Assembly: GCA_022564995.1 (NCBI GenBank)
Contig: JADFKK010000001.1
Location: forward strand, 30,786-94,785
DNA: 64,000 bases
Origin: Planctomycetota bacterium
GTDB lineage: Bacteria > Planctomycetota > Planctomycetia > Pirellulales > JADFKK01
Direction of reading: 5' to 3'
Shown: in pieces, positions 3,882 through 57,882 of the stretch
Position numbering within the stretch: the first letter of the stretch is position 1
Layout of the letters: each line of letters starts with the position of its first letter
Translations under genes and position numbers: made by a program
Notes under the pieces: model-generated
Seen by the model: the letters and a program-made list of their open reading frames with translations, nothing else
Databases searched by the model: none
Told to the model about the DNA's origin: nothing

Positions 3882-4364
3882 ATGGCAGCTTACATCAAAT
3901 TTGACGGAATCAGTGGGGAATCAAAAGACAAGGATCACGCGGACTGGAGCGATTTGGCGTCGTTCGGTCAGGCTCTCCATCAGCCCGGCGGCGGGGCGAC
4001 CGGGGCGACGCGCCGAAGAGGGGACGTGATCCTCGACGATCTGACGTGCAGCAAGGAACTGGACAAGTCGAGCCCGAAGATCGCCGAGGCGGTTTGCAAC
4101 GGCAAGGTCTTTCCCAAAGTGGAGATTCACTTGACCGCCTCAATTACGGATGCCGGCCGAGTAACGTATTACGCCTACGAACTCACCAACGTCTGTGTCA
4201 CCAGCTACAACATCAGCGGTAGCGGCCAGAGTGACGACGTGCCGATGGAAGACTTCAGTTTGAACTACGAGGAAATCAAGGTCACGTATACCGAAAACGA
4301 CAGCAAGGGGAAGAAGAAAGGCAACGTCGAGTACACCTGGAAGGTCGAAGAGGGCGAGTCTTAG
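3882..4364 (+). CDS. hcp: type VI secretion tube protein Hcp (TssD)
   Basis: 160 aa. N-terminus 'MAAYIKFDGISGESKDKDH..W' and 'DKSSPKI' are typical Hcp1-family signatures. GGAGAAGGA Shine-Dalgarno sequence 6 nt upstream of the ATG. Confidence 0.85.
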   Translation: MAAYIKFDGISGESKDKDHADWSDLASFGQALHQPGGGATGATRRRGDVILDDLTCSKELDKSSPKIAEAVCNGKVFPKVEIHLTASITDAGRVTYYAYELTNVCVTSYNISGSGQSDDVPMEDFSLNYEEIKVTYTENDSKGKKKGNVEYTWKVEEGES

Positions 4365-4501
4365 GCCCCCCGCTCGAACTGGCTGCTTACCGACGCCGTG
4401 GAATCAGGGCAAGGCCTTGGTTCCACGGCGGTGTTTTGTCGTCGCCGCGCGCCGACGGTTGATTTCCGCGCGGCGCATGTTGTGGTCCGGAGGCTCGTGT
4501 T

Positions 4502-6718
4502 ATGGCAAATCTGCTAAACATCATTACGTCGCCGGTTGACGACCTGCTGCTGGGATCTTTCTCGGGATACGAAGAACTGTCCCGCTTGTTCAACTTCACG
4601 CTGCAGCTTACGTCGCGCGAGGATCACAACGTCTCACCGGACCAATTGGTCGGAAAACCGTTTGCCTTTAGCGTTAAATCCGATCTGGCCGACGCCGAGG
4701 GCGACGCCCGGCAGGAAGAGCGTTTCTTTCACGGATACGTCAATCGGTTTGTCGTCCACGGCAGCCAGGGCGGTCTCTGCCGTTACGAGATCGACGTCGT
4801 GCCCCGGATGTGGTTCCTCACCCGCACGTCCGATTGTCGTATTTTTTCCAAGAAGAAACTTCTCGACGTCGTCGAGTCGATTCTCCAAGAGCACGAAATC
4901 GATTTTGAATCGAGCAATTTGAACAAAGGCAGCTATCCCGATCGCGAATACTGCGTGCAGTATCGTGAAACCGATTTCAACTTCATCTCGCGATTGTTGG
5001 AGCAGGAAGGCGTCTATTATTACTTTCAGCACAGCCAGGACGGACACAAGCTGATCCTCTGCGACGCACCGAGCCATTACCGCGCGGACGATAACTGCCA
5101 GGAAGTCCCCTACGATGACAGCTTTCCGTTCACGCAGGCCAGCGTCACCCAATGGGTTCGGCAGTATCAGTTCGTGTCTGGTGGTTACGCCCAGACCGAT
5201 TACAACTACGAGGAAAATCCAGCTCGCGGCGATAAGACCCCTGCCGGGCTGCTAAAATCGCAGGCCAACATTGCTGGCCCTGCCGCGAATCTTACCGACG
5301 TGCAGAAATACGAAGTTTTCGACTACCCCGGCGAGTATGCCGACAAATCCGGTGGAGACCATTACACCGGGCGGAGGATGGAGGAAGAAGCGGCGGCCTA
5401 CGACGTTGCCAACGGCAGCAGCCTGCTCAGCCACTTCAGCGCGGGAGTGAAAATGAAGCTGGTTTTCCCGGCCGGGCCGCCGGCTCATCCACAAAAAGAA
5501 TCGCAGGACGGCGAGTATGCGATCCGTTCCGTTCAACACTCGGGAAGCAGCTCCGCCGACGGCACCGGTTCCGGCGCAGATTATTCAAATACCTTTACGG
5601 CGATTCCCGCCGACATGAAGTTTCGAACCCCGCGGATCACGCCTAAACCGCTCATCAGCGGCGTACAAACGGCCGTGGTGGTCGGCCCGCCCGGCAGCGA
5701 GATTCATACCGACGAATTGGGCCGGGTCCAACTCCAGTTTTTTTGGGACCGCTACGGCACTCGATCGCAAGGGGGTGACGAACAGGAGCCTATTTGGGTG
5801 CGGGTCGGTCAGATCAGCGCGGGTAAAAAATGGGGAGCGATGTTCATTCCGCGCGTCGGCCAAGAAGTGATCGTCACCTTTCTCGAGGGCGACCCCGATC
5901 GACCGCTGGTGACCGGCGGCGTTTACAACCGCGATCAGGAGCCCGCCTACAATCCGAAAGAAAACAAGACCAGGAGCGGCATCAAGACCTGCTCTTCGCC
6001 GGGGGCCGACGGCTTCAACGAACTGCGATTCGAAGACAAGAAGGGCGAAGAGCAAGTCTATATCCATGCCGAAAAGGACATGGAGGTGCGGGTCAAGAAC
6101 GACTCGAAGCTGCGAGTCTTCGGAAACCGGCATCAAATCGTGGGCACGGACGACGGCGGGAGCCTTTACGAGCAGGTCTATGAAGACAAGCACGTCGAAG
6201 TCAAGCAACACCTCATCCAACACATCGAAGGTAACTCCCAACTGACCGTGGGCAACGGCGACGCCTCGGACGGCGGCCATCTGGAAGTGGTGATCGAGAA
6301 GAAAGAAACGCGAAAAATCGGGCCCGATGGCTTACACCTAACGATTGAGGGCGACTACATCGAGAAAATCGGCGGTGGCCTGTCACAAGATATCGGCGGA
6401 GACCAGCAGACAAAAATTGGCGCGAATCTCGGGATCGAAGCCGGACAAGACATCCACATCAAGGGCGGAATGAACGTCGTCATCGAAGCCGGAATGCAAC
6501 TGTCGCTAAAGGTTGGTGGGAACTTCATCAGCATCGGGCCAGCCGGGATCGCCATTCAAGGCACCACCGTATTGATCAACAGCGGCGGCGCCGCCGGTAG
6601 CGGTAAAGGGGCCAAACCGGAAAATCCCAAGAAAGCGAAAGACGCCAAGCCAAAGGAACCCAAAGTCGCCGCCGAAAAGAACAAACACAAGGCGGGCCAG
6701 ATTTCCACGCCGTTTTAA
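4502..6718 (+). CDS. vgrG: VgrG (TssI) spike protein with Lys-rich C-terminal tail
   Basis: 738 aa. Contains 'FFHGYV' and 'RVGQISAGKKWGAMFIPRVGQEVIVTFLEGDPDRPLVTGGVYN', the gp27/gp5 core motifs of VgrG. Followed by beta-helix-like G-rich repeats. Confidence 0.9.
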   Translation: MANLLNIITSPVDDLLLGSFSGYEELSRLFNFTLQLTSREDHNVSPDQLVGKPFAFSVKSDLADAEGDARQEERFFHGYVNRFVVHGSQGGLCRYEIDVVPRMWFLTRTSDCRIFSKKKLLDVVESILQEHEIDFESSNLNKGSYPDREYCVQYRETDFNFISRLLEQEGVYYYFQHSQDGHKLILCDAPSHYRADDNCQEVPYDDSFPFTQASVTQWVRQYQFVSGGYAQTDYNYEENPARGDKTPAGLLKSQANIAGPAANLTDVQKYEVFDYPGEYADKSGGDHYTGRRMEEEAAAYDVANGSSLLSHFSAGVKMKLVFPAGPPAHPQKESQDGEYAIRSVQHSGSSSADGTGSGADYSNTFTAIPADMKFRTPRITPKPLISGVQTAVVVGPPGSEIHTDELGRVQLQFFWDRYGTRSQGGDEQEPIWVRVGQISAGKKWGAMFIPRVGQEVIVTFLEGDPDRPLVTGGVYNRDQEPAYNPKENKTRSGIKTCSSPGADGFNELRFEDKKGEEQVYIHAEKDMEVRVKNDSKLRVFGNRHQIVGTDDGGSLYEQVYEDKHVEVKQHLIQHIEGNSQLTVGNGDASDGGHLEVVIEKKETRKIGPDGLHLTIEGDYIEKIGGGLSQDIGGDQQTKIGANLGIEAGQDIHIKGGMNVVIEAGMQLSLKVGGNFISIGPAGIAIQGTTVLINSGGAAGSGKGAKPENPKKAKDAKPKEPKVAAEKNKHKAGQISTPF

Positions 6719-6792
6719 TACTTCAGCGCAACGTCGTCAGCGGCTTTCAAGGATGGAAAACGTGTCTGGAACGATCGGTTTCCGGAAAGCAA

Positions 6793-6950
6793 GGGACTGG
6801 AGATTGGGGGCTGGAGACTGGAGACTGGAGACTGGAGACTGGGGGCTGGAGACTGGGGGCTGGAGACTGGGGCGGGACGAGTCGGAAGCGAGGTTTCCCT
6901 AGTCCCCAGCACCTAGTCCCCAGTCTCTAGTCCCCAGCCCCCCAGTCCCC
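6793..6950. repeat. heptamer-phased imperfect palindrome (GACTGGA/GACTGGG/GGCTGGA units facing CTAGTCC/CCAGTCT units)
   Basis: About 11 tandem 7-nt units at 6793-6872. The loosely complementary C-rich units lie at 6897-6950, separated by a ~24-nt spacer. Confidence 0.8.
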
Positions 6951-7026
6951 AAACGCCCTACACAACATCGGCCTTCACAACCTAGCGCGGTCGTACTAAG
7001 TAAAAGACCAAAACAAAGGAGACGTC

Positions 7027-7311
7027 ATGCCACCCGCCGCGCGACTTGGTGATCTCCACGTCTGCCCGATGTTTGACGGACCGAAACCGCACGTCGGCGG
7101 ACCGATTGCGCTCGGCTGCTTTACCGTCATGATCGGCGGTCAGCCAGCGGCCCGCGTTGGCGACATGGCCGTTTGTGTCGGCCCTCCGGACGCCATCGCC
7201 ATGGGCTCCACGGGCGTCCTGATCGGCTATATGCCGGCCGCCCGCATGGGCGACACTACCGTCCACGGCGGCAAGATCGCCGTCGGCTTTCCCACCGTGA
7301 TGATTGGGTGA
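7027..7311 (+). CDS. PAAR domain protein (spike tip), no toxin extension
   Basis: 94 aa with three PAAR-type motifs (PAARLGD, PAARVGD, PAARMGD). AAGGAG Shine-Dalgarno sequence upstream. Confidence 0.85.
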   Translation: MPPAARLGDLHVCPMFDGPKPHVGGPIALGCFTVMIGGQPAARVGDMAVCVGPPDAIAMGSTGVLIGYMPAARMGDTTVHGGKIAVGFPTVMIG

Positions 7312-7409: not shown

Positions 7410-7466
7410 GGCAGTGACACCGTTTCAGCCGTTGTCAGAGAGAAACGGTGGGAATGAGAAGAAAAG

Positions 7467-7751
7467 CTAAGGCAGAATCTCGCACTGCGGCGAATCCTGC
7501 TTGGGCGTTTCGAGGTCGTGCGGAAAAAATAGAATACAACGGTCGTGGTATGGATTCGGGCCAAAAAATCCGTTATGCTCACCGAAGCGTTTTTGCAACC
7601 ACGCCGCCGTCTCTTCTTTTTGCTTCTGTAGTGCCCGGTACTGCCTGTACTGAACCCAGCCGCCAAATGCGACGGTGGCCACCGTCATCACAATCATCAG
7701 CGTCTTCAGGCTGAACTGATACCAGCGACGTTTGTGCGGTGAGGCGTTCAT
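7467..7751 (-). CDS. small membrane-anchored protein (cargo of E1)
   Basis: 94 aa. N-terminus 'KRRWYQFSLKTLMIVMTVATVAFGGW' gives one predicted TM helix. No recognisable domain. Confidence 0.55.
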   Translation of the reverse strand: MNASPHKRRWYQFSLKTLMIVMTVATVAFGGWVQYRQYRALQKQKEETAAWLQKRFGEHNGFFGPNPYHDRCILFFPHDLETPKQDSPQCEILP

Positions 7752-7753
7752 AC

Positions 7754-7798
7754 GCCCATTATCCTGTCCGGGGAGGGGGAGGGGGAGGGGAAGGGCTA
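7754..7798. repeat. dispersed G-tract element, copy 1
   Basis: GCCCATTATCCTGTCCGGGGAGGGGGAGGGGGAGGGGAAGGGCTA. Shares a 19-mer with copy 2 (21096-) and a 17-mer with copy 3 (55472-). Confidence 0.8.
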
Positions 7799-8410
7799 TT
7801 CAATCGAATCCCAGAGATTGTCTGCTTTTACCCGCCGCGAAATCACCCCCGCTGACACCTCAAATGGCGACGCAATGTAAGACTCGACCATCTTCCTCAC
7901 CTCTTCGCTTGGTACTGCTGAAGAAATAGCGCCGACACTACGTGCCGCGTCAACCGCCGTAGAGAAGTGGTCGTGAAGCGGCTTCTCCTGGACGAGGATA
8001 AGGCCACCAAGGGAATACGCTTGAAATTCAATCCATCGAAGCTGGTCGTGTGGGATTCCTGCTACGACTGCCTTCCACTCAAACACTGATGAGAAATCTA
8101 GCTCGGCGATTATGTCCTTGTGAAGAACAATGTGGGCCAACTCATGGGCAAGGCTAAAGCGATACCTGTTTGGCCGGTTCTTATAAACGAATTCGTCGAT
8201 ATAAACCGTCTTCAAATCTTTACTCGGCGCTGACTCCATCTCCAAGTTGTTCTGGAGCCCCGGAATTGCCACAATGTCAAGGTCAAACTCGTATTCGGCG
8301 ATGCGTTCGATGGGCACTGGTAGAGTGCCTTCCGGGTGGTGTTCTGCGAGAAACGTGTCTGCGACTTCTCGAAGCTTATCATATGGGAGAAAAGGGGCTT
8401 TGATGGGCAC
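7796..8410 (-). CDS. ImmA/IrrE family metallopeptidase
   Basis: 204 aa with the HExxH motif 'AHELAHIVLH'. Sits immediately downstream of an XRE regulator, as in ImmR/ImmA modules. Confidence 0.8.
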   Translation of the reverse strand: MPIKAPFLPYDKLREVADTFLAEHHPEGTLPVPIERIAEYEFDLDIVAIPGLQNNLEMESAPSKDLKTVYIDEFVYKNRPNRYRFSLAHELAHIVLHKDIIAELDFSSVFEWKAVVAGIPHDQLRWIEFQAYSLGGLILVQEKPLHDHFSTAVDAARSVGAISSAVPSEEVRKMVESYIASPFEVSAGVISRRVKADNLWDSIE

Positions 8411-8414
8411 GGCT

Positions 8415-8786
8415 TCATGATCTCCGTATCATTTCCAGCAATTCGTCCAGCTTTTCTGATGGAAACGGGTGCCCGCGAAGGGTCCGAAACAGGGCCGGAA
8501 GCTTGTCGATGAGTTCCTCATCGGACAGCAAGTCCTTTGGAAATTCACCGCGAGCCGCCGCCGCTGCATCAAAAAATTCAATCCATGCGTCCGTGTCTCG
8601 CTGAATCTCTAGGGCAACGGCATATTTTTCGAGTAGCTGTTGTCCCTGCGGTGGTGACGCGCGGCCGCGCTCCAGGCGGCTGTAGTTGCCAGGGTCAATG
8701 TCGTTTTTGAGGCAAAACTCGCGGAGCGTGAGCCCCAATTTTTTGCGATGTGCCTTGAGCGTTCTGCCAAATATGTTTTCCGCCAT
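8415..8786 (-). CDS. XRE-family helix-turn-helix regulator
   Basis: 'LKAHRKKLGLTLREFCLKNDIDPGNYSRLERGR' HTH_XRE signature. Start chosen at the internal ATG (8786), which is preceded by GGAGGA; the ORF track extends to 8846. Confidence 0.8.
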   Translation of the reverse strand: MAENIFGRTLKAHRKKLGLTLREFCLKNDIDPGNYSRLERGRASPPQGQQLLEKYAVALEIQRDTDAWIEFFDAAAAARGEFPKDLLSDEELIDKLPALFRTLRGHPFPSEKLDELLEMIRRS

Positions 8787-8834
8787 GATGAGTCCTCCGC
8801 ATCGCGGACGTAAGTCGTTTTGGATATTGTACTT

Positions 8835-8862
8835 ATAATACAACACCGGCCGACCTAGTCAA
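8835..8862 (-). promoter_or_regulatory. candidate sigma70-type promoter of the E1 XRE gene, overlapped by the palindrome TTGTA-N7-TACAA (8827-8843)
   Basis: On the minus strand: TTGACT, 16-nt spacer, TATTAT. A second TACAA-N3-TTGTA lies near 8957-8969. Confidence 0.4.
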
Positions 8863-9060
8863 GTGATGTCTGGAAGATCATCGTCTTTGTCAGGTCATAT
8901 CTTAACGCCCTTTGGCGGAGTGTCAAGATGACGAGTCGCGTAAATCTCTGGAAATACAACAATTGTAGTCACGTCCGTTGGTCACCCGGGGGTCACTTAA
9001 GTGCCGTTCGTTTCACTGGACCCTCTTGAAAAAGATGAGAAGGATGACTAGACTTCGTGT

Positions 9061-9777
9061 ATGGACATTGAAAGCCAACTCGCGGCCTCCGATGCGTTCT
9101 CCCGACTTTGCGCGGACGCGATGCGGGTCAAGAGTCTACATGAGGCCGCTGAAATGGAACTGCCGCCGTCGCTCAGGCAGTTCTTCGGGATTCAAGAAAC
9201 AAATGGATCGGCACTCAGCCGCCCCCGTGTGTCGATTCCGCCGCCGCAATCACCCCCCGGTCCGTCGCACGCGAGTTCGGACTGGATTTGGGTTCCAATG
9301 GAGGACATGCACGCGACCGGAATCGTTTTGGCCATTCTTCGCCAAGCTGCTGGACCCGTTGAGCCGGCGACCGTAACGGAAAAGGTTCTTCAACATCAGC
9401 CTGACGTGAATCCCAGAAGTGTTCTGAATATCGGCCCGCGGCAAGAAGGCAAGCTTATTGAAAGAACGAATGAGGGTTGGGTGCTTCGCGGCGATAAAGA
9501 CCGAGCCCCCGTCCTGCACAAGGGACACGCATGGGGGCCGCCAACGGTTTTCGACAAACAAGAATTGGCCGCCCATCGCAGGATAATGCTGGCCCACCTG
9601 CTTGATGCAATGCCTGGCGGATTGCAGGTGGTTCAGATTGTTGAACAGTTGAAAAACCTACCGTACTGCCGCGCGCCAGTCAGCAAGGACTTGGTAAAGG
9701 CAGACTTGTCGGCAATGCAAGAGGTTGGCAAGGTGAAGCGTGTCGGCAACACCCGTAAATGGGTCTTGTCGAATTAA
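9061..9777 (+). CDS. hypothetical protein with two winged-helix-like segments (E1 cargo)
   Basis: 238-aa ORF divergent from the XRE gene. Two segments ending '...EGWVL' and '...RKWVL' resemble wHTH wings. No confident family. Confidence 0.5.
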   Translation: MDIESQLAASDAFSRLCADAMRVKSLHEAAEMELPPSLRQFFGIQETNGSALSRPRVSIPPPQSPPGPSHASSDWIWVPMEDMHATGIVLAILRQAAGPVEPATVTEKVLQHQPDVNPRSVLNIGPRQEGKLIERTNEGWVLRGDKDRAPVLHKGHAWGPPTVFDKQELAAHRRIMLAHLLDAMPGGLQVVQIVEQLKNLPYCRAPVSKDLVKADLSAMQEVGKVKRVGNTRKWVLSN

Positions 9778-9833
9778 GACGCTATCGTAACGGACTGACG
9801 GAAAGGCACGGTTTGCCTATGAACGAACAAAAC

Positions 9834-9876
9834 GACCTCGGCGAAAGTGCTAATTTCGCCGAGGTCTTTGTCGTTT
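9834..9876 (+). terminator. Rho-independent terminator after ORF 9061-9777
   Basis: 13-bp stem GACCTCGGCGAAA / TTTCGCCGAGGTC, 7-nt loop, followed by TTTGTCGTTT. Confidence 0.7.
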
Positions 9877-9888
9877 GAAGGATTGGAT

Positions 9889-9961
9889 GCCAGGGTAGCT
9901 CAGTGGAGAGAGCAGCCGACTGCTAATCGGCAAGTCGCGGGTTCGACCCCCGCCTCGGGTA
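9889..9961 (+). tRNA. class-I tRNA-like gene, anticodon loop CUGCUAA (anticodon GCU), weak acceptor stem
   Basis: Manual cloverleaf. D arm: TAGCTCAGTGGAGAGAGC. Anticodon stem: GCCGA/TCGGC. Variable loop: 5 nt. T arm: GCGGG-TTCGACC-CCCGC. The acceptor stem has one A.G mismatch and two G.U pairs. No encoded CCA. Confidence 0.55.
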
Positions 9962-9986
9962 TCTTTTTCCTTCGTCCCGTCGCTTC

Positions 9987-10051
9987 GGGCCTGCCAGGTG
10001 GTAACGGTGCTTTATAAGCATCGTGACCGGGTTCAACTCCCGGCAGGTCCA
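9987..10051 (+). ncRNA. D-arm-less tRNA-like element, anticodon-type loop UUUAUAA
   Basis: Acceptor GGGCCTG/CAGGTCC. T arm CCGGG-TTCAACT-CCCGG. 7-bp stem ACGGTGC/GCATCGT with a 7-nt loop. Only 10-12 nt where a D arm should be. Confidence 0.4.
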
Positions 10052-10200
10052 CTGAAAAACCGCAGCACGCGGCCACGGTCATTCTGCGCGCCACCCTAGC
10101 ACATACACGGAATGTCGTCAAACCCCTTTTTACGAAAGGAGTTATGTCGTGCCTTGGCTACCACGCGCAGAAATATCCAAAGGGGCCTTACGGCCCCCGA

Positions 10201-10392
10201 TTATTTGTTTCGGCGTTTTGCTGCCCTGAGCAAAATCTCTCTCGCCCACACGGCAACAGATTTGCCAGATTTAGCAGCCGCCTGCCGGATGATGTCCCAC
10301 TGCTCGTCCGGCCAGCGTCCGACCTGCCGAACGGGATTTATCTCTTTCACCGCCTTTGCAGGGCGTCCAGGGCCACGTTTCGTCTTACTCAT
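10201..10392 (-). CDS. ribbon-helix-helix (CopG/MobC-like) DNA-binding protein
   Basis: 63 aa. 'VRQVGRWPDEQWDIIRQAAAKSGKSVAVWAREILLRAA' fits the RHH beta-alpha-alpha pattern. Divergent from the transposase gene. Confidence 0.65.
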   Translation of the reverse strand: MSKTKRGPGRPAKAVKEINPVRQVGRWPDEQWDIIRQAAAKSGKSVAVWAREILLRAAKRRNK

Positions 10393-10455
10393 GCCCCAAG
10401 TCTATACCGCCATGGGTTTTGTGTCAATACATGATATTTTCATAAACTCCCTATT

Positions 10456-10490
10456 TCGTGTATTAACACGAAATTATATTCTGGTACAAT
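10456..10490 (+). promoter_or_regulatory. candidate transposase promoter of E1 with an overlapping palindrome
   Basis: TTAACA (10463-10468), 16 nt, TGgTACAAT (extended -10, 10482-10490). The palindrome TCGTGT-ATTA-ACACGA (10456-10471) covers the -35. AT-rich divergent region. Confidence 0.45.
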
Positions 10491-10622
10491 TGAGACAGTG
10501 AATGAAAAACCCCGACGCCTGCTGAAACAAGCACCGGGGCAACAACAATCGGGCTTTCGCCAGACTATTGTCTGTCAAACGCATTCTAGCGAGAGCCCCC
10601 AACGAAGGGAAGGTTTCTCGCT

Positions 10623-11495
10623 ATGGCCAACAGAATGAGCACCGAAAAGCGTAACACGATCTTGCGACTCATGGTCGAAGGAAACAGCATCCGCTCCATC
10701 ACCCGCCTTATGGGAACCAACATTCCATCGGTCATCCGCCAACTCACCTGGGCCGGCGACCACTGCGCCGCCCTGATGAATGAACGATTCCGACACCTGA
10801 CGCTCACCCATGTCGAGTGCGACGAAATCTGGACCTTCGTACAAAAGAAGCAATCCCGCCTCACGATGGAAGAGCGCGAGACCCGTGGCGACATTGGCGA
10901 CATCTACCTCTGGACCGCCCTGGACCAAGGCAATCGCCTGATTCCCAGCTTCGTCGTAGGCAAGCGCTCGGCCGACAATGCCCGCCGGTTGATGATGGAC
11001 CTGCGGAGCCGTATCACGATCCCACGGCCGCACGAAGCGGACGTGACGGGCGAGTACCGCAAGGTGCTGCAAATCTCGTCGGACGGATTCGCCGCGTATC
11101 CCGAAGCTGTCGATCTTGCCTTCGGCCCCTACGTCAAGTTCGGCACGATCATCAAAGACTATCGAAACGCCAACATGCCCTACACGCCCAGCGAGATGGT
11201 TGGCACTCAACGACGGGGCATCAAGGGCATACACGGCAGCGAAGAACGGACGATATGCACGTCGCACGTCGAGCGAAACAACCTCACGATCCGCACGTTT
11301 ATGAAGCGGTTCACCCGGCTCGCCCTGGGATTCAGCAAGAAACTCGAAAACCTGGAATCGGCCGTCAGCCTCCACATGGCCTATGACAACTTCTGCTGGC
11401 GTTCGGGCGAAATGAGGGTCACGCCGGCGATGGCCGCGAAGGTCACCAAGACGCTATGGAGTTTCGACGATCTGATGATGGGGACGGCGGCCTAG
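10623..11495 (+). CDS. IS1 family transposase (single fused ORF)
   Basis: 290 aa. N-terminal HTH, 'CDEIWTFV', 'YLWTALD', 'SSDGFAAY' and 'HVERNNLTIRTFMKR' match the IS1 DDE/ERxN pattern. Confidence 0.85.
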   Translation: MANRMSTEKRNTILRLMVEGNSIRSITRLMGTNIPSVIRQLTWAGDHCAALMNERFRHLTLTHVECDEIWTFVQKKQSRLTMEERETRGDIGDIYLWTALDQGNRLIPSFVVGKRSADNARRLMMDLRSRITIPRPHEADVTGEYRKVLQISSDGFAAYPEAVDLAFGPYVKFGTIIKDYRNANMPYTPSEMVGTQRRGIKGIHGSEERTICTSHVERNNLTIRTFMKRFTRLALGFSKKLENLESAVSLHMAYDNFCWRSGEMRVTPAMAAKVTKTLWSFDDLMMGTAA

Positions 11496-11534
11496 CGGGT
11501 TTTTCCTTACCTTTGGTCAAACGGTATCACTACC

Positions 11535-11542: not shown

Positions 11543-11580
11543 AAGGGGTTTGACTTGTTGCCGGAAATCGCTAAGGTGTT

Positions 11581-11601
11581 GGTAGTGTTGTAGTTTCAGC
11601 A
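11581..11601. repeat. solo IS1-type left-end remnant
   Basis: GGTAGTGTTGTAGTTTCAGCA matches the E1 IRL GGCAGTGACACCGTTTCAGCC at 14/21 (GG.AGTG and GTTTCAGC blocks) and the E2 IRL at 12/15. No partner right end seen. Confidence 0.4.
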
Positions 11602-54336: not shown

Positions 54337-54344
54337 AGCATGCT
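54337..54344. repeat. left flanking 8-mer AGCATGCT of element E2 (probable target-site duplication)
   Basis: The same 8-mer abuts the other end at 57875-57882. The 8-mer is itself palindromic, so it could instead extend the inverted repeat. Confidence 0.6.
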
Positions 54345-54433
54345 GGTAGTGTCCTAATTCGAATCGGCGTCAGAAAGAAACGGTGGAAAGTTAGAAAAGA
54401 CAAGCGGCCTGAAACCGTTTCACTTCGGTGCAG

Positions 54434-55399
54434 CTATTTGCCTGATAGCAGGGACGTAAGTCCCAAAGCGATTGCTGAACCAAGGACCAACATCACGATC
54501 GCCAAAATGATGTTTGCCAGCATAGATCCCGTACCGAATCGGATTCCGAGCGATGTCAGTTTCGCGTCCTGTTCGGTCGTTTTTGCTACCAACATATTCA
54601 CACTCGCCAAGACTTGGCTAGCGCTGCGCGTATTATCGTCAGCGAGGGCTCTTACGGCATCAACATCTTTTGCTGTCCGCCGCAATTCCTGGGTAAGCTG
54701 GCGAACATCGTTGGTCACGTTATCGACGTTACTAGTAAGTCTCTGAATGGGTTCAATAACGTCGCCGTACTGTTGCTTAAGGTCCAGTACGTCTTTTGCC
54801 AGTTGTTGTATCCGTTTGACTTCATCACTGATTTCCGCCCACGGCATAACGTCCATGTTTGCCATGCTGGTGAGAAAATCGCCAGGAAATTCTCCGACCA
54901 GGAGGTCAGGGTCTGACCCAACAGGCTTTTGATCGGAGTCCAACTTCTCAAAGATGAGTGTACAGATTTTACCAGACATCCGCAGAACACGTTTCGCCGA
55001 GGAAGCATTGTAAAGGCCAAACAAAAGATGGCCTTCATACCCTGGATCGACGACGGACCCGGTAAGAAGGATCAACCCCTCGTAAGAAAACTTACGTTTG
55101 GAGCCGATACGAGCGAGCACGTTGTTTGGGAGTTTTAGGCGTTCAAGTGAAATGACCCCAGCGTATGAACCCGGACCGATTGTCAGGCGATCCTTTGTCA
55201 TGTCGATGTCATTGCCATGGCCACCAGAGATTGCCTTCTTGCCGATTCGTACATCGTAGGAAGTTGACTGCAAGCAAGCGCCGTCAAATGTTTCCTCACT
55301 GATTAGCTGTCCATTTTTCACGAAACGGCGAATCTCTTTCTCCGTGAGGATAATACTCCCCTGCGGATCGCTCGGTAGGCGTTGCTGTTCGTCTGCCAT
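54434..55399 (-). CDS. dCTP deaminase/dUTPase-fold N-domain fused to a coiled-coil and a C-terminal TM anchor
   Basis: The N-terminal 160 aa align by eye to Dcd ('ILTEKEI...G.L.I....QS.SYDVRIG', 'VVDPGYEGHLLFGLYN'). Residues 190-290 are heptad-rich. The C-terminus 'MLANIILAIVMLVLGSAIALGLTSLL' is a TM helix. Confidence 0.65.
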   Translation of the reverse strand: MADEQQRLPSDPQGSIILTEKEIRRFVKNGQLISEETFDGACLQSTSYDVRIGKKAISGGHGNDIDMTKDRLTIGPGSYAGVISLERLKLPNNVLARIGSKRKFSYEGLILLTGSVVDPGYEGHLLFGLYNASSAKRVLRMSGKICTLIFEKLDSDQKPVGSDPDLLVGEFPGDFLTSMANMDVMPWAEISDEVKRIQQLAKDVLDLKQQYGDVIEPIQRLTSNVDNVTNDVRQLTQELRRTAKDVDAVRALADDNTRSASQVLASVNMLVAKTTEQDAKLTSLGIRFGTGSMLANIILAIVMLVLGSAIALGLTSLLSGK

Positions 55400-55471
55400 G
55401 ATATTCCCACCCCATCAAAGAAATGCAACAACCAACAACGCCAGTAATTGCCCCAAATGAAACCGAGCCCC

Positions 55472-55510
55472 GCCCATTATTTCGTCCCGCGATGGGGAGG
55501 GGAAGGGCTA
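55472..55510. repeat. dispersed G-tract element, copy 3
   Basis: GCCCATTATTTCGTCCCGCGATGGGGAGGGGAAGGGCTA. Its terminal 17-mer GGGGAGGGGAAGGGCTA is identical to copy 1. Confidence 0.8.
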
Positions 55511-55521
55511 GAAGCCCACGA

Positions 55522-55740
55522 TCACAACAAGTTCTTGATGTCTACTTTGATGGCCTGCGCAAAGCGATAGAGCATACTCAGCCTGGGGTCTCTTGTGCGG
55601 TGGATGAACTGCCACGCGGATTTGCGGGCCGAATTCGCCGGATAGCCCATTTTTCGGCCAAGTTCATCGAGGCTCATGCCAGAGTCCTCGAAAATCTCGG
55701 CGACGCGGGCCATCACGTTTGGTGCGGTCTTCTTGACCAT
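55522..55740 (-). CDS. small XRE/Cro-like HTH regulator
   Basis: 72 aa. 'MSLDELGRKMGYPANSARKSAWQFI' helix-turn-helix. Divergent from ORF 55908. Confidence 0.7.
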   Translation of the reverse strand: MVKKTAPNVMARVAEIFEDSGMSLDELGRKMGYPANSARKSAWQFIHRTRDPRLSMLYRFAQAIKVDIKNLL

Positions 55741-55748
55741 GCCCGGAA

Positions 55749-55766
55749 GTCTATATTGTCATAGAC
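55749..55766. promoter_or_regulatory. operator-like palindrome GTCTAT-N6-ATAGAC in the XRE promoter region
   Basis: GTCTATATTGTCATAGAC. The same arms recur at 56798-56815. A minus-strand TTGACA lies at 55771-55776. Confidence 0.55.
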
Positions 55767-55907
55767 GTTTTGTCAAGTGCGGATTCCGAGTGTGTACCTT
55801 TGACCAGCGAAATTAACTCAGCGCAGGTCACCTGTGTGTTAGTGATTGACATTCATCCTAGATGCAATACAATGAGTTCGTATCGTAACTCACGAAAGGA
55901 TATCACG

Positions 55908-56363
55908 ATGGATGAACAACAAGCGTTGAAAACAGCCGAGCAATTGGCGAAACACCGCGAATTTCTGGATGAAATCCGGGAAAAGCGACTCGCACTCAAA
56001 CATAAACTTGAAAACCTGACAACAGTGGAGAAATACCACGCCGATGAGGTTCTGCGCCTTGAGGGGCCGCTAGCGACCGTCAATCTGGCGCCCGAAGTGC
56101 AGACAGAGACGAGCGATCATGCGGCCCAAAATGGATTTTCTATATCTGAGTCTGCCACCAAACACGAAGCGTGTCGACTCGCCCTAAGAGCAATGGGTCG
56201 CCGCAGCAAGACACCGGAAATTGCGGATTGGCTTGTTGCACACGGCTACGGACGGAACCTCCGAACCAAAATTCTTCGCAACGCCTGTTTTACCGCAATG
56301 GCAAGGAAGGAAGAGATTTTCGATAAGATCGACGGCAAATGGGGGCTAATCGAAGCCGAGTAG
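55908..56363 (+). CDS. hypothetical coiled-coil plus winged-helix-like protein (E2 cargo)
   Basis: Start at 'MDEQQALK' with AAGGA 8 nt upstream. The C-terminal '...TPEIADWLVAHGYG...KIDGKWGLIE' is wHTH-like. Positional counterpart of E1 ORF 9061-9777. Confidence 0.55.
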   Translation: MDEQQALKTAEQLAKHREFLDEIREKRLALKHKLENLTTVEKYHADEVLRLEGPLATVNLAPEVQTETSDHAAQNGFSISESATKHEACRLALRAMGRRSKTPEIADWLVAHGYGRNLRTKILRNACFTAMARKEEIFDKIDGKWGLIEAE

Positions 56364-56619
56364 CAAAGTCTCAGCGGCCCCGGGGGGACCGCTGAGACCT
56401 CGTGTAGATGTCCCCCCGCAATCGCCGGCTCGGCGGGTGTTTGGTTTCGAGGCCACGCCCGTCGTTCCGGCCCAACGCATGGAGGGCCGAGTCCCATGAG
56501 CAACCCGTTAAGGATGCTCGGTGCGATACGTTTATCGCGTGATAAATCCGGCTGACCTCACGGTCAACCAAGTGTCCAGGTCGCGGTCCAACGGGCCGCG
56601 ATCCTGGGCACCCCTTTTT

Positions 56620-56723
56620 GGCACGGTGGCCGAGCAGGTTAAAGCGCCCGGTTTATACCCGGTGGCCTGGGCAAGGATAGCTAGCTCCGACGCCCAGCAT
56701 GGGTTCGATCCCCATCCGTGCCG
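56620..56723 (+). tRNA. class-II (long variable arm) tRNA-like gene, anticodon loop UUUAUAC (UAU), discriminator G
   Basis: Acceptor GGCACGG/CCGTGCC is perfect. T arm ATGGG-TTCGATC-CCCAT. Ser-tRNA-like 'TGGCCGAGCAGGTTAAAG' D region with a weak stem. 35-nt variable region with a 6-bp stem. 104 nt in total. Confidence 0.5.
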
Positions 56724-56777
56724 CTCTGGGGATCGCTGACATTCTATACAAATCGGCTCCCCGCGTCAATTTCTTCA

Positions 56778-56815
56778 TTGACAATCATTGATTGTGTGTC
56801 TATAATGACATAGAC
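56778..56815 (+). promoter_or_regulatory. consensus sigma70 promoter of the E2 transposase with an overlapping operator
   Basis: TTGACA (56778-56783), 17 nt, TATAAT (56801-56806). The palindrome GTCTAT-AATGAC-ATAGAC (56798-56815) covers the -10. Confidence 0.65.
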
Positions 56816-56941
56816 AAGCATGGGATACAAAACCCCGACAACGGCTGTAACCGCTGCCGGGGCGAACCACAACCGGCTTTCGCTGATTGCAGCCTCAACA
56901 CCTCAATCATAGCGAAGCCCAAGAAAAAAGGAACCTTCGCT

Positions 56942-57838
56942 ATGGCTATTCGCCTCCCCCGAGAAAAGCAGCTTGCTTGCCTACAGCACTTGGTCGAGGG
57001 CAACACGATCCGCAGTACCGAAAGGTTGCTGGGCGTCCACCGGGACACCGTCATGCGCCTCATGGTCCGATTCGGAACCGCCTGTCAAACCATGATGGAT
57101 CAGCGGATTCGTGGGCTCACGGTGGACAAGATCGAGATTGATGAGACGTGGACATTCTGCGGTCGAAAGAATCGCACCTTGAGCCCGAATGAGAAGCTTG
57201 AGCGGTACGATCTGGGTGACCAGTACCTCTGGGTCGCGCTTGAAGCCGACAGCAAATTGGTTATCTCGCACGTCGTCGGGAAGCGCAGCGGCGACAACGC
57301 CCGCAGGCTGATTCGAGACTTGTCAGAACGGCTCGTGTTCCCAACTCCCCACGAAGCGGACCTGCACGGCTACCGGCCAATCTGTCAGATTACGACCGAC
57401 ATGTACATCGTCTATCCCGAAGCGATCGACCAGTTTTTCGGACCCTACGTCAAGTACGGGCAGATCAAGAAAGACTACCGCTCGCACGACATGCCCGGCC
57501 GCTACACGCCGGCCGAGATAGTGGCCACGCAGCGGAAAGGGATATTCAACATAGAGGGCGACGAATTGTACGGTCTGAGCACGAGCTACGTCGAACGATT
57601 CAACCTCACGAACCGGGTTTTGCAAAAGCGATTTACCCGATTGTCGCTCGGCTTTTCCAAGAAACTCGACAACCTGAAAGCGGCTTGCTCGATGTTCATG
57701 GGATATTACAATTTCGTTTGGCGGACCCGGCGGCCCGGCAAGAGCGGTCGCTATCGTCCGCCGGCTGCGATGATGGCTGGCGTGACGAGCCGGCTGTGGT
57801 CGTTTGAAGATTTGTACGATGAGGCGATGGCGGCGTAG
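56942..57838 (+). CDS. IS1 family transposase (single fused ORF)
   Basis: Start at 'MAIRLPREKQ'. 'IDETWTFC', 'YLWVALE', 'TTDMYIVY' and 'YVERFNLTNRVLQKR' motifs. Clearly related to, but far from identical with, 10623-11495. Confidence 0.85.
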   Translation: MAIRLPREKQLACLQHLVEGNTIRSTERLLGVHRDTVMRLMVRFGTACQTMMDQRIRGLTVDKIEIDETWTFCGRKNRTLSPNEKLERYDLGDQYLWVALEADSKLVISHVVGKRSGDNARRLIRDLSERLVFPTPHEADLHGYRPICQITTDMYIVYPEAIDQFFGPYVKYGQIKKDYRSHDMPGRYTPAEIVATQRKGIFNIEGDELYGLSTSYVERFNLTNRVLQKRFTRLSLGFSKKLDNLKAACSMFMGYYNFVWRTRRPGKSGRYRPPAAMMAGVTSRLWSFEDLYDEAMAA

Positions 57839-57874
57839 TTTTTCCTTGACGGCAGGTCAAATTAGGACACTACC

Positions 57875-57882
57875 AGCATGCT
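57875..57882. repeat. right flanking 8-mer AGCATGCT of E2
   Basis: Identical to 54337-54344. Confidence 0.6.

Follow-up and report, generated by a model that had tools for sequence, protein, structure and literature searches.

Within a 64,000-nt stretch of a Planctomycetota genome (Pirellulales; GCA_022564995.1, contig JADFKK010000001.1, positions 30,786 to 94,785; hereafter the window), we analysed a 104-nt tRNA-like gene that combines a serine-type body with the anticodon UAU. The gene lies in a complete IS1-family transposon, E2, of 3,530 bp (54345-57874), which is delimited by terminal inverted repeats (IRs) with 15/15 identical positions and by the 8-bp target-site duplication (TSD) AGCATGCT. 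From left to right, E2 carries a dCTP-deaminase-like gene with small open reading frames (ORFs), a hairpin with a T run, the tRNA-like gene, a promoter, a leader and the transposase gene (Table 1). A sister element in the window, E1 (4,125 bp, 7410-11534), has IRs matching at 16/20 positions and the TSD CACCTTTG, and contains a UAU tRNA-like gene of its own; the two transposases are 51% identical. Since both elements are complete and their tRNA-like genes internal, these genes are neither neighbours nor targets of E1 and E2.

The carrier combines an IS1-type DDE transposase with terminal IRs and a target duplication of the 8-9-bp class. The E2 transposase scored 27.1 bits against PF03400 (cut-off 24.1) and 56 bits against NCBIfam NF033558, below the cut-off of 100, and is thus a distant member of the IS1 family. 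The motifs DE-W-F, TDG and SHVER-N were invariant in the family alignment. The catalytic Glu is E218, an invariant column within SHVER-N, which we take to correspond to the IERHN motif of IS1.

The E2 RNA has the layout of a class-II tRNA. Its acceptor stem (GGCACGG/CCGTGCC, 56620-26 / 56716-22) consists of seven perfect pairs and is followed by G at 56723 as the discriminator (G73), and its T arm (56699-56715) has a 5-bp stem, AUGGG/CCCAU, with the loop UUCGAUC. The D region, GGCCGAGCAGGUUAAAGC, contains a Ser/Leu-type D loop with G18G19 and a weak D stem of two good pairs and a C12·A23 mismatch, and the anticodon stem joins four pairs with a C27·U43 mismatch. The variable region exceeds the length familiar from bacterial tRNA-Ser. 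An earlier note, written from the letters alone, had listed the acceptor stem, T arm, anticodon loop, variable stem, G73 and a Ser-like D region with a weak stem, all of which we recovered; the canonical 7/5 geometry that it assigned to the RNA also held, as an eighth acceptor pair would be a mismatch.

The Rfam tRNA model RF00005 covered 56620-56723 end to end (model positions 1-71) and scored 46.6 bits, where the gathering score is 29 (window-wide E 8e-07), and a covariance model built from E2-type sequences gave 94 bits. ARAGORN, which the earlier note had named as a check, gave no call, a miss that may reflect the oversized variable arm; detection as a tRNA was therefore obtained with the Rfam model and not with ARAGORN. 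The folding energy was unremarkable (z -1.9 against shuffles), so that the tRNA fold is supported by similarity in sequence plus structure and not by thermodynamics alone.

The main support for the E2 RNA is comparative. Among six relatives of the E2 scaffold, 97.8% of the alignment cells were paired and 14 of 26 pairs showed compensatory changes, which were distributed over all five helices, as the covariation check suggested in the earlier note had called for. The variable-arm helix (helix 4) was 100% paired, with compensatory changes at 4/6 pairs. None of 500 shuffles did as well, and slid controls reached 36-56% paired. On these comparative grounds, the class-II tRNA fold of the E2 RNA was shown to be maintained, and its loop, with U33, UAU and A37, is canonical for decoding.

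One anticodon loop on several scaffolds

An alignment-based search for the transposase recovered 177 relatives in contigs of one genome per species and at least 494 in metagenomes; the alignment query was needed, as a single-protein search of the genome contigs returned no relatives. We kept 160 loci (given as L numbers), nearly all from Planctomycetota metagenome-assembled genomes (MAGs), and all sequences came from MAGs and metagenomes. tRNA-like genes were detected with ARAGORN, Rfam, a stem-matching script and the covariance model built from E2-type sequences. Upstream sequence of at least 750 nt was available for 104 unique loci, and in 59 of them (~57%) a UAU tRNA-like gene precedes the transposase start by 350-730 nt; homologues beside related transposases, which the earlier note had proposed to look for, thus exist. 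Most of these genes were on the same strand, and four were inverted, which indicates that the tRNA-like gene is an independent gene.

The ends of the elements were traced via L063, whose GGTAGTG... terminus led to the ends of E2 and then of E1; generic inverted-repeat scans had failed to reveal them, and a flank-against-flank scan gave mostly noise. IR candidates of the GGTAGTG type were found in twelve further loci, ten of which had a perfect 8-bp TSD; ends of the GGTAGTG... kind bound 11 delimited elements besides E2, and wherever a tRNA-like gene was present, it lay inside the IRs. The 100%-identical pair L026 and L030 was rejected as a definition of the unit, being confounded by IS256 copies flanking L030 and by an extra insertion. 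The L030 unit is bracketed by two nearly identical IS256-family transposase genes (383-1672 and 4000-5205), and the 1,979-bp repeat that it shares at 100% identity with L026 does not mark the true IS1 ends.

The 64 distinct tRNA-like sequences fell into three main scaffolds. Class A, the E2 type (n=7), has 7/5 geometry, a length of 99-105 nt, a Ser-type D loop, a very long variable arm and G73. Class C, with 42 distinct sequences, is a 9/3 allo-tRNA with a 5-bp D stem, in which 14 of 20 predicted pairs showed compensatory changes; G1-C72, G2-C71, A3-U70 and G73 were present in 42/42 sequences while neighbouring pairs covaried. Class B, the E1 type (n=10), is ~65 nt long and has no D arm, and G3·U70 and A73 occurred in 10/10 sequences, with covariation at pairs 4-6. 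The sole part common to the scaffolds was the loop Y32-U33-UAU-A37-A/C38, which had almost no exceptions in the 64 sequences: CUUAUAA was found 30 times, UUUAUAA 16 times and UUUAUAC nine times, besides others, with U33 in 62/64 and A37 in 63/64. The nearest transposase relative of E2, L081 (72% identical), carries a class-C RNA, which indicates that scaffolds have been exchanged while the anticodon was kept. The unusual loop that the earlier note had seen in both E1 and E2 is thus a property of the family, and its retention across 64 distinct sequences argues against random decay.

Several companion tRNAs were also observed. Class-B RNAs are usually preceded by another odd tRNA, which carries the anticodon UCC in L008 and L037, UGC in L086, ACC in L111 and AGC in L083. 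The partner in L003 (2306-2388) has a class-II body with CUA and resembles an amber suppressor, and that in L002 (2352-2456) has an E2-type body with the anticodon UAC. The L014 transposase, which lacks a tRNA-like gene upstream, is followed downstream by a dense array of at least 12 tRNA genes, some of them aberrant (5428-6810); among them are a 90-nt tRNA(UAU), a 121-nt tRNA-like RNA and loops whose 'anticodons' have 2 or 4 bases. In L113, a 73-nt class-I tRNA with UAU, G37 and A73 (14-86) lies at -493 of the transposase; it may represent a fourth scaffold, the only one with an Ile-like discriminator.

We then compared the scaffolds with known aminoacylation identity rules. Under the classic G3·U70 rule for alanyl-tRNA synthetase (AlaRS), class B looks like a predicted AlaRS substrate. 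The identity set of seryl-tRNA synthetase (SerRS) comprises the long variable arm, G73, G1-C72 and G2-C71, and the anticodon is not used (PMC9976931). The E2 RNA shares with bacterial tRNA-Ser the 7/5 body with a long variable arm and all of G73, G1-C72 and G2-C71, in agreement with the Ser-type scaffold of the earlier note, and has UAU instead of a Ser anticodon (NGA or GCU). Classes A and C both look like predicted SerRS substrates. In comparison with tRNA-Ile(UAU), the E2 RNA has UAU, U33 and A37 in a 7-nt loop, and lacks the class-I body and A73, a discriminator that is a strong determinant for isoleucyl-tRNA synthetase (IleRS) (PMC9976931).

The closest described RNAs are the allo-tRNA(UAU) species of Mukai et al. 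2017 (Nucleic Acids Res 45:2776), which are slightly deviant cloverleaves, and one of which, an Edaphobacter pseudogene, overlaps a transposon-related ORF (PMC5389517). The E2 RNA resembles them in its long variable arm, G73, Ser-type acceptor stem, non-Ser anticodon UAU and link to a transposable element. It differs in its 7/5 geometry and 35-nt variable region from the 8/4 or 9/3 12-bp branch that defines the group, and its hosts are Planctomycetota MAGs, whereas the genetic loci in that paper were attributed to Acidobacteria (PMC5389517). Because the 8/4 or 9/3 split is absent, we regard the E2 RNA as a 7/5 variant of the allo-tRNA kind and not as a member. The allo-tRNA comparison drawn in the earlier note was nonetheless apt, as 42 sister elements carry true 9/3 versions at the same position and class C matches the group.

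AUA codons in the transposase gene

The AUA codons of the E2 transposase lie 14-25 codons before the DDE glutamate. In a codon alignment of 141 unique transposase genes (E2 numbering), ATA accounted for 112 of 137 Ile codons at position 212 (T-I-CTSHVER; binomial p 1e-55) and for 89 of 99 at position 204 (p 7e-52), in tests that treat related sequences as independent. These were the two strongest codon-specific enrichments in the whole gene, the next best being 2e-25, and the pattern held at the level of 70%-identity clusters. ATA was also found at positions 201, 193/194 and 175/176, and across the family the AUA sites are placed 6-25 codons upstream of the catalytic Glu. The AUA codons that the earlier note had predicted the RNA to read are thus kept at fixed sites of the element's own transposase.

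The enrichment was confined to one part of the gene. Between aa 171 and 215, ATA made up 335 of 641 Ile codons (52%), compared with 18 of 1061 (1.7%) in aa 1-170 and 8 of 160 after aa 215. Host genes in the window use ATA for 5/249 Ile codons (2%) and 5/5067 of all codons (~0.1%), and the transposases for 3/15 (E2) and 2/18 (E1) Ile codons, despite a host-like G+C content at third codon positions (GC3) of 0.75-0.79. A general A+T drift of mobile DNA was rejected as the cause, given that the transposase GC3 equals or exceeds that of the host and that aa 1-170 have so little ATA. Neighbouring synonymous sites vary freely, with ACG, TCG or ACA before the codon and ACC, ACG or ACA after it, while the triplet itself is fixed; this indicates selection on the codon and rules out a longer nucleotide motif as the source of the conservation.

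Where ATA was absent, position 204 was occupied by ATG (24 cases), ATT/ATC or Leu, and position 212 by ATT/ATC, Val or Leu. Neither Ser nor Ala was ever seen at positions 204 and 212 in family members without ATA. Since the sites otherwise hold Ile, Met, Leu or Val and never Ser, insertion of Ser would be mis-sense and not the intended reading. An AlphaFold model (predicted local distance difference test, pLDDT, 79.9) assigns the AUA sites to a β-hairpin (170-180 / 192-202) and to a short helix (206-211), a segment directly ahead of the catalytic Glu in which AUA is fixed at 2-4 sites. When PDB chains were searched by sequence with the transposase profile, no relative of solved structure emerged.

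The codons and the tRNA-like gene tended to occur together. ATA at position 204 was found in 49/57 loci with the gene in cis vs 20/39 without (Fisher 4e-4, kinship ignored), and at position 212 in 53/59 vs 30/43 (p 0.019, kinship ignored). L063, a complete element of 1,872 bp, lacks a tRNA-like gene and is devoid of ATA codons, and L049 and L029 have neither the gene nor ATA at 204 and 212. In four outgroup IS1-family transposases (35% identical), which come from alphaproteobacterial plasmids, the homologous sites are occupied by ATC or GTT and the ATA total is 0-1; ARAGORN detected no tRNA up to 2 kb away. The checks at cluster level and against the outgroup agree in direction with the uncorrected statistics.

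Other features of the two elements

The remaining features of E2 and E1 are listed in Table 1. The E2 cargo protein scored 73.5 bits against TIGR02274, under the cut-off of that model. Its region has a low local G+C content (52%), and the coiled-coil and hydrophobic tail are fused to the DCD domain; the gene may serve in defence by nucleotide depletion and be carried along by the transposon. The transposase leader of ~110 nt is kept across the family (E2, 56832-56943; E1, 10497-10625; L026, 2750-2875; L063, 2760-2875). Its hairpin, read on the minus strand, is an intrinsic terminator, and the helix at the start codon occurs in compensatory versions in E1 (TAGCGAGA/TCTCGCTA) and L026 (GCAAAGT/ACTTTGC). 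With these structures, the leader appears to add a further layer of translational control. In E2, a promoter-like site on the minus strand (56769-56741) is directed into the tRNA-like gene.

In E1, the D-armless RNA folded as 9987-10054 gave a minimum free energy with z -5.9. The class-I tRNA(GCU) located 25 nt upstream reads a Ser codon and has no long variable arm, and a hairpin similar to that of E2 lies 5' of this tRNA pair. A transfer-messenger RNA (tmRNA) reading of the E1 companion was rejected: RF00023 gave 26.7 bits vs 47, covering the tRNA-like domain only, no tag frame was found, and ARAGORN gave no tmRNA call. An antisense ribbon-helix-helix (RHH)-like ORF of 63-64 aa with its own divergent promoter lies between the tRNA-like gene and the transposase promoter in E1 and in L026/L030 (2445-2639, minus strand), and is missing in E2; it had no match among Pfam, NCBIfam or PADLOC models. 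The M78/XRE pair of E1 matches the CapP/CapH regulators of defence systems.

Outside E1, a solo left-end-like repeat, GGTAGTGTTGTAG..., is found at 11578-11601 (plus strand), 47 nt past the right end, and may be a remnant of another element of the family. Just left of the insertion site is a VgrG gene (Phage_GPD, gp5 C-terminal; 4502-7311, plus strand), followed by a small ORF that ends in ...GDTTVHGGKIAVGFPTVMIG and looks PAAR-like. E1 thus landed beside an apparent type VI secretion spike locus.

Table 1. Features of elements E2 and E1 (window coordinates).
Feature	Position	Strand	Basis
E2: left TSD copy, AGCATGCT	54337..54344	.	octamer identical outside both IRs
E2: left terminal IR, GGTAGTGTCCTAATT..., 15/15 vs right end	54345..54364	+	end mapping
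E2: cargo, dCTP-deaminase-like protein with C-terminal coiled-coil/membrane tail	54434..55399	-	Pfam DCD, 57 bits
E2: G+C-rich hairpin, then T run ending one base before the tRNA-like gene	56578..56619	+	read from sequence
E2: tRNA-like gene, 104 nt, class-II, 7/5, G73, no encoded CCA	56620..56723	+	Rfam RF00005, own covariance model, covariation
E2: anticodon UAU in 7-nt loop UUUAUAC (56652-56658)	56654..56656	+	sequence, Rfam alignment, 64 relatives
E2: 35-nt variable region, stem CUGGGC/GCCCAG (56667-72 / 56692-97)	56664..56698	+	sequence, folding, covariation
E2: consensus sigma-70 promoter of transposase gene, TTGACA-17-TATAAT, 3' of tRNA-like gene	56778..56806	+	12/12 match
E2: conserved 5'-leader hairpin, AAAACCCCGAC...CCGGGGC	56832..56863	+	also in E1, L026, L063
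E2: leader helix ATAGCGAAG/CTTCGCTAT, sequesters start codon	56909..56943	+	read from sequence
E2: IS1-family DDE transposase, 298 aa	56942..57838	+	PF03400, 905 homologues
E2: AUA codons of transposase, aa 193, 201, 204	57518-20, 57542-44, 57551-53	+	codon alignment
E2: right terminal IR	57855..57874	-	end mapping
E2: right TSD copy, AGCATGCT	57875..57882	.	end mapping
E1: TSD copies, CACCTTTG	7402-09 and 11535-42	.	end mapping
E1: terminal IRs, 16/20	7410-29 / 11515-34	.	end mapping
E1: CapP/CapH-like pair, M78 peptidase and XRE helix-turn-helix	7796-8846	-	PADLOC
E1: cargo, unannotated ORF, 238 aa, after CapP/CapH-like pair	9061-9777		
E1: class-I tRNA, 73 nt, anticodon GCU	9889-9961	+	ARAGORN
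E1: D-armless UAU tRNA-like RNA, 65 nt, loop UUUAUAA	9987-10051	+	folding, Rfam
E1: RHH ORF	10204-10392	-	sequence
E1: transposase, ATA at 11229-31 and 11253-55	10623-11495	+	homology

Possible roles of the element-borne tRNA

The decoding loop is the only part common to the scaffolds, AUA is the most conserved codon of the transposase gene, and this codon is rare in the host; together these observations suggest that the tRNA is aimed at the AUA codons of the transposase. On balance, we think it probable that the element-encoded tRNA is translationally coupled to these codons. The E2 RNA would then be an integral, trans-acting gene of the transposon that reads the AUA codons of its transposase. 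It would be transcribed on its own, matured and supplied with CCA. Host SerRS would charge it through the long variable arm, G73, G1-C72 and G2-C71, and AlaRS would charge the D-armless sister class through G3·U70/A73. On the ribosome, the element tRNA would compete with scarce host tRNA-Ile2 at the AUA sites and would set both the speed of the ribosome through the AUA cluster and the residue inserted. Since AUA makes up only ~0.1% of host codons, proteome-wide recoding of AUA to Ser is not likely to be the point, and the transposase appears to be the target.

Several observations weigh against this coupling. The E2 copy has two weakened pairs, C12·A23 and C27·U43, encodes no CCA and was not called by ARAGORN; promoter prediction around the gene gave none, and a hairpin resembling a terminator sits directly at its 5' end. 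In about 43% of the loci there is no tRNA-like gene in cis, yet many of these loci retain ATA, most of all at position 212 (30/43); where they do, ARAGORN and Rfam searches at permissive settings added nothing. The binomial and Fisher tests ignore the kinship of the sequences, and the AUA sites adjoin a low-confidence stretch of the AlphaFold model, so that any part they play in catalysis is putative. Furthermore, when six allo-tRNA(UAU) species were recoded to CUA, none of them led to Ser insertion in E. coli, and two of the six were toxic (PMC5389517).

Within the coupling model, we favour mis-sense self-limitation, a programmed mistranslation that controls transposon copy number, as a tentative sub-model that is itself rather less than probable. 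More element copies would yield more Ser-tRNA(UAU) and hence more transposase with Ser at the AUA sites. Such a protein, bearing Ser or, with the D-armless scaffold, Ala, would still bind the element ends, be catalytically impaired and act as an inactive competitor, and the outcome would be copy-number-dependent self-limitation. AUA is clustered before the catalytic Glu and stays at the host level in the DNA-binding half, a distribution that suggests a product able to bind ends and impaired in catalysis. A single synonymous change from ATA to ATC would escape the inhibition, yet ATA is strongly conserved, and a direct benefit from a pause or gate therefore fits at least as well. The tRNA may thus relieve or tune a programmed pause during which the DNA-binding domain, still nascent, can attach to the element in cis. 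Alternatively, IleRS may charge the RNA through its anticodon, giving a bldA-like positive gate, which would explain both why the loop is the sole common part and why the UAU-to-CUA variants of Mukai et al. were inactive.

Parts of these sub-models have parallels in known systems. In the high-G+C genomes of Streptomyces, TTA codons are almost confined to particular sites of regulatory genes, and bldA tRNA-Leu(UAA) is the dedicated tRNA that reads them and so gates the translation of these genes. The E2 pair likewise joins a host-rare codon fixed at specific sites with a dedicated cognate tRNA, and tRNA-dependent expression is predicted; in contrast to the faithful, chromosomal bldA, the E2 tRNA is carried by the element that it would regulate, and its body predicts Ser or Ala and not the normal amino acid of the codon. 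In phage lambda, the int gene contains rare Arg codons, and the argU tRNA lies beside prophage DLP12 (reportedly described by Zahn and Landy in 1996). There, too, rare codons limit the synthesis of a mobile-DNA recombinase, and the level of a rare tRNA with a link to mobile DNA modulates it, but argU is a normal host-type tRNA-Arg and not part of a transposon, and we know of no positional conservation in that system comparable to the AUA sites. The minor tRNA-Ile(UAU) of bacteria lacking TilS, such as Mycoplasma mobile, reads AUA with UAU in a standard loop and is a class-I tRNA with A73 charged by IleRS, unlike the class-II E2 RNA with G73.

Insertion sequences also limit themselves through IS1 InsA, Tn5 Inh and IS10 RNA-OUT, which act via frameshifting, alternative starts or antisense pairing. 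Like the proposed Ser-bearing transposase, these trans-acting products scale with copy number and cut active transposase, and IS1 InsA keeps the DNA-binding N-terminus without the catalytic part, paralleling the distribution of AUA in the E2 transposase. A tRNA acting through codon choice is not known among these devices, and one is proposed here.

An unlikely alternative to coupling is a tRNA-shaped RNA that never decodes and serves as an RNase P/Z processing or insulator signal, a transposase cofactor or decoy, or a partner of the adjacent RHH/toxin-antitoxin-like module. The published inactivity of the CUA variants in E. coli would fit such a role, as would the heterogeneous scaffolds, some with destabilised stems, the terminator-like hairpin directly 5' of the gene and the small RHH gene that adjoins it in E1 and L026. 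However, the only part that all scaffolds share is a canonical decoding loop, its UAU corresponds to the codon that is conserved more than any other in the adjacent gene, and synthetase identity elements are invariant where adjacent pairs covary; the four inverted loci speak against a processing role in cis.

We also regard as improbable that the gene is general cargo for codon supply or mistranslation, as with phage tRNAs, or a hitch-hiker, the transposase codons being incidental. tRNA cargo is common on mobile DNA, and the E1/E2 cargo genes have GC3 of 0.49-0.62 and contain ATA, with three in the 114 codons of orf113. Yet the cargo varies between elements where the pairing of tRNA and transposase is constant, and the transposase, with its host-like GC3, avoids ATA except at the fixed sites. 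A Ser or Ala identity would, moreover, corrupt Ile positions and not help them.

It seems very unlikely that the gene is a functionless remnant of a tRNA-Ser gene that was captured, underwent drift in its anticodon and is now decaying. The two stem mismatches, the missing ARAGORN call and the z of -1.9 would be expected of a relic, and an allo-tRNA(UAU) pseudogene is on record from Edaphobacter (PMC5389517). Against this stand compensatory changes in all helices, the same anticodon on independent scaffolds in 64 sequences, and an intact surrounding element with perfect IRs, TSD, consensus promoter and open transposase frame. Lastly, tRNA genes are classic integration sites and the distance to the transposase is fairly constant, but insertion of the transposon beside pre-existing tRNA-like genes, in the manner of integrases, is refuted by the IR/TSD mapping: in E1, E2 and those other complete elements that have such a gene, it is internal, 1.5-2.5 kb away from the left end, and the TSDs that enclose it are unrelated 8-mers.

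Allo-tRNAs, which deviate in the anticodon and have Ser identity, have been known since 2017, with UAU as the largest group, for which no function was assigned and a tie to mobile DNA was loosely suspected. In our literature searches, no earlier work was found to connect IS1 transposases with AUA codons and tRNA-like genes, and no paper naming an IS1-family carrier, several scaffolds with one anticodon, or conserved AUA in a transposase. The carrier can now be named as a large IS1-family clade in Planctomycetota with mapped ends and target duplications, which has recruited several unrelated tRNA scaffolds for the same anticodon, and a likely target has been found in the AUA codons fixed at a few sites of its own transposase. 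If the coupling is true, the scaffolds would offer compact orthogonal tRNAs with a built-in biological read-out. For the family itself, it would be a new kind of transposon self-regulation, and might be the first natural case of targeted mistranslation used by a mobile element and aimed at its own gene.

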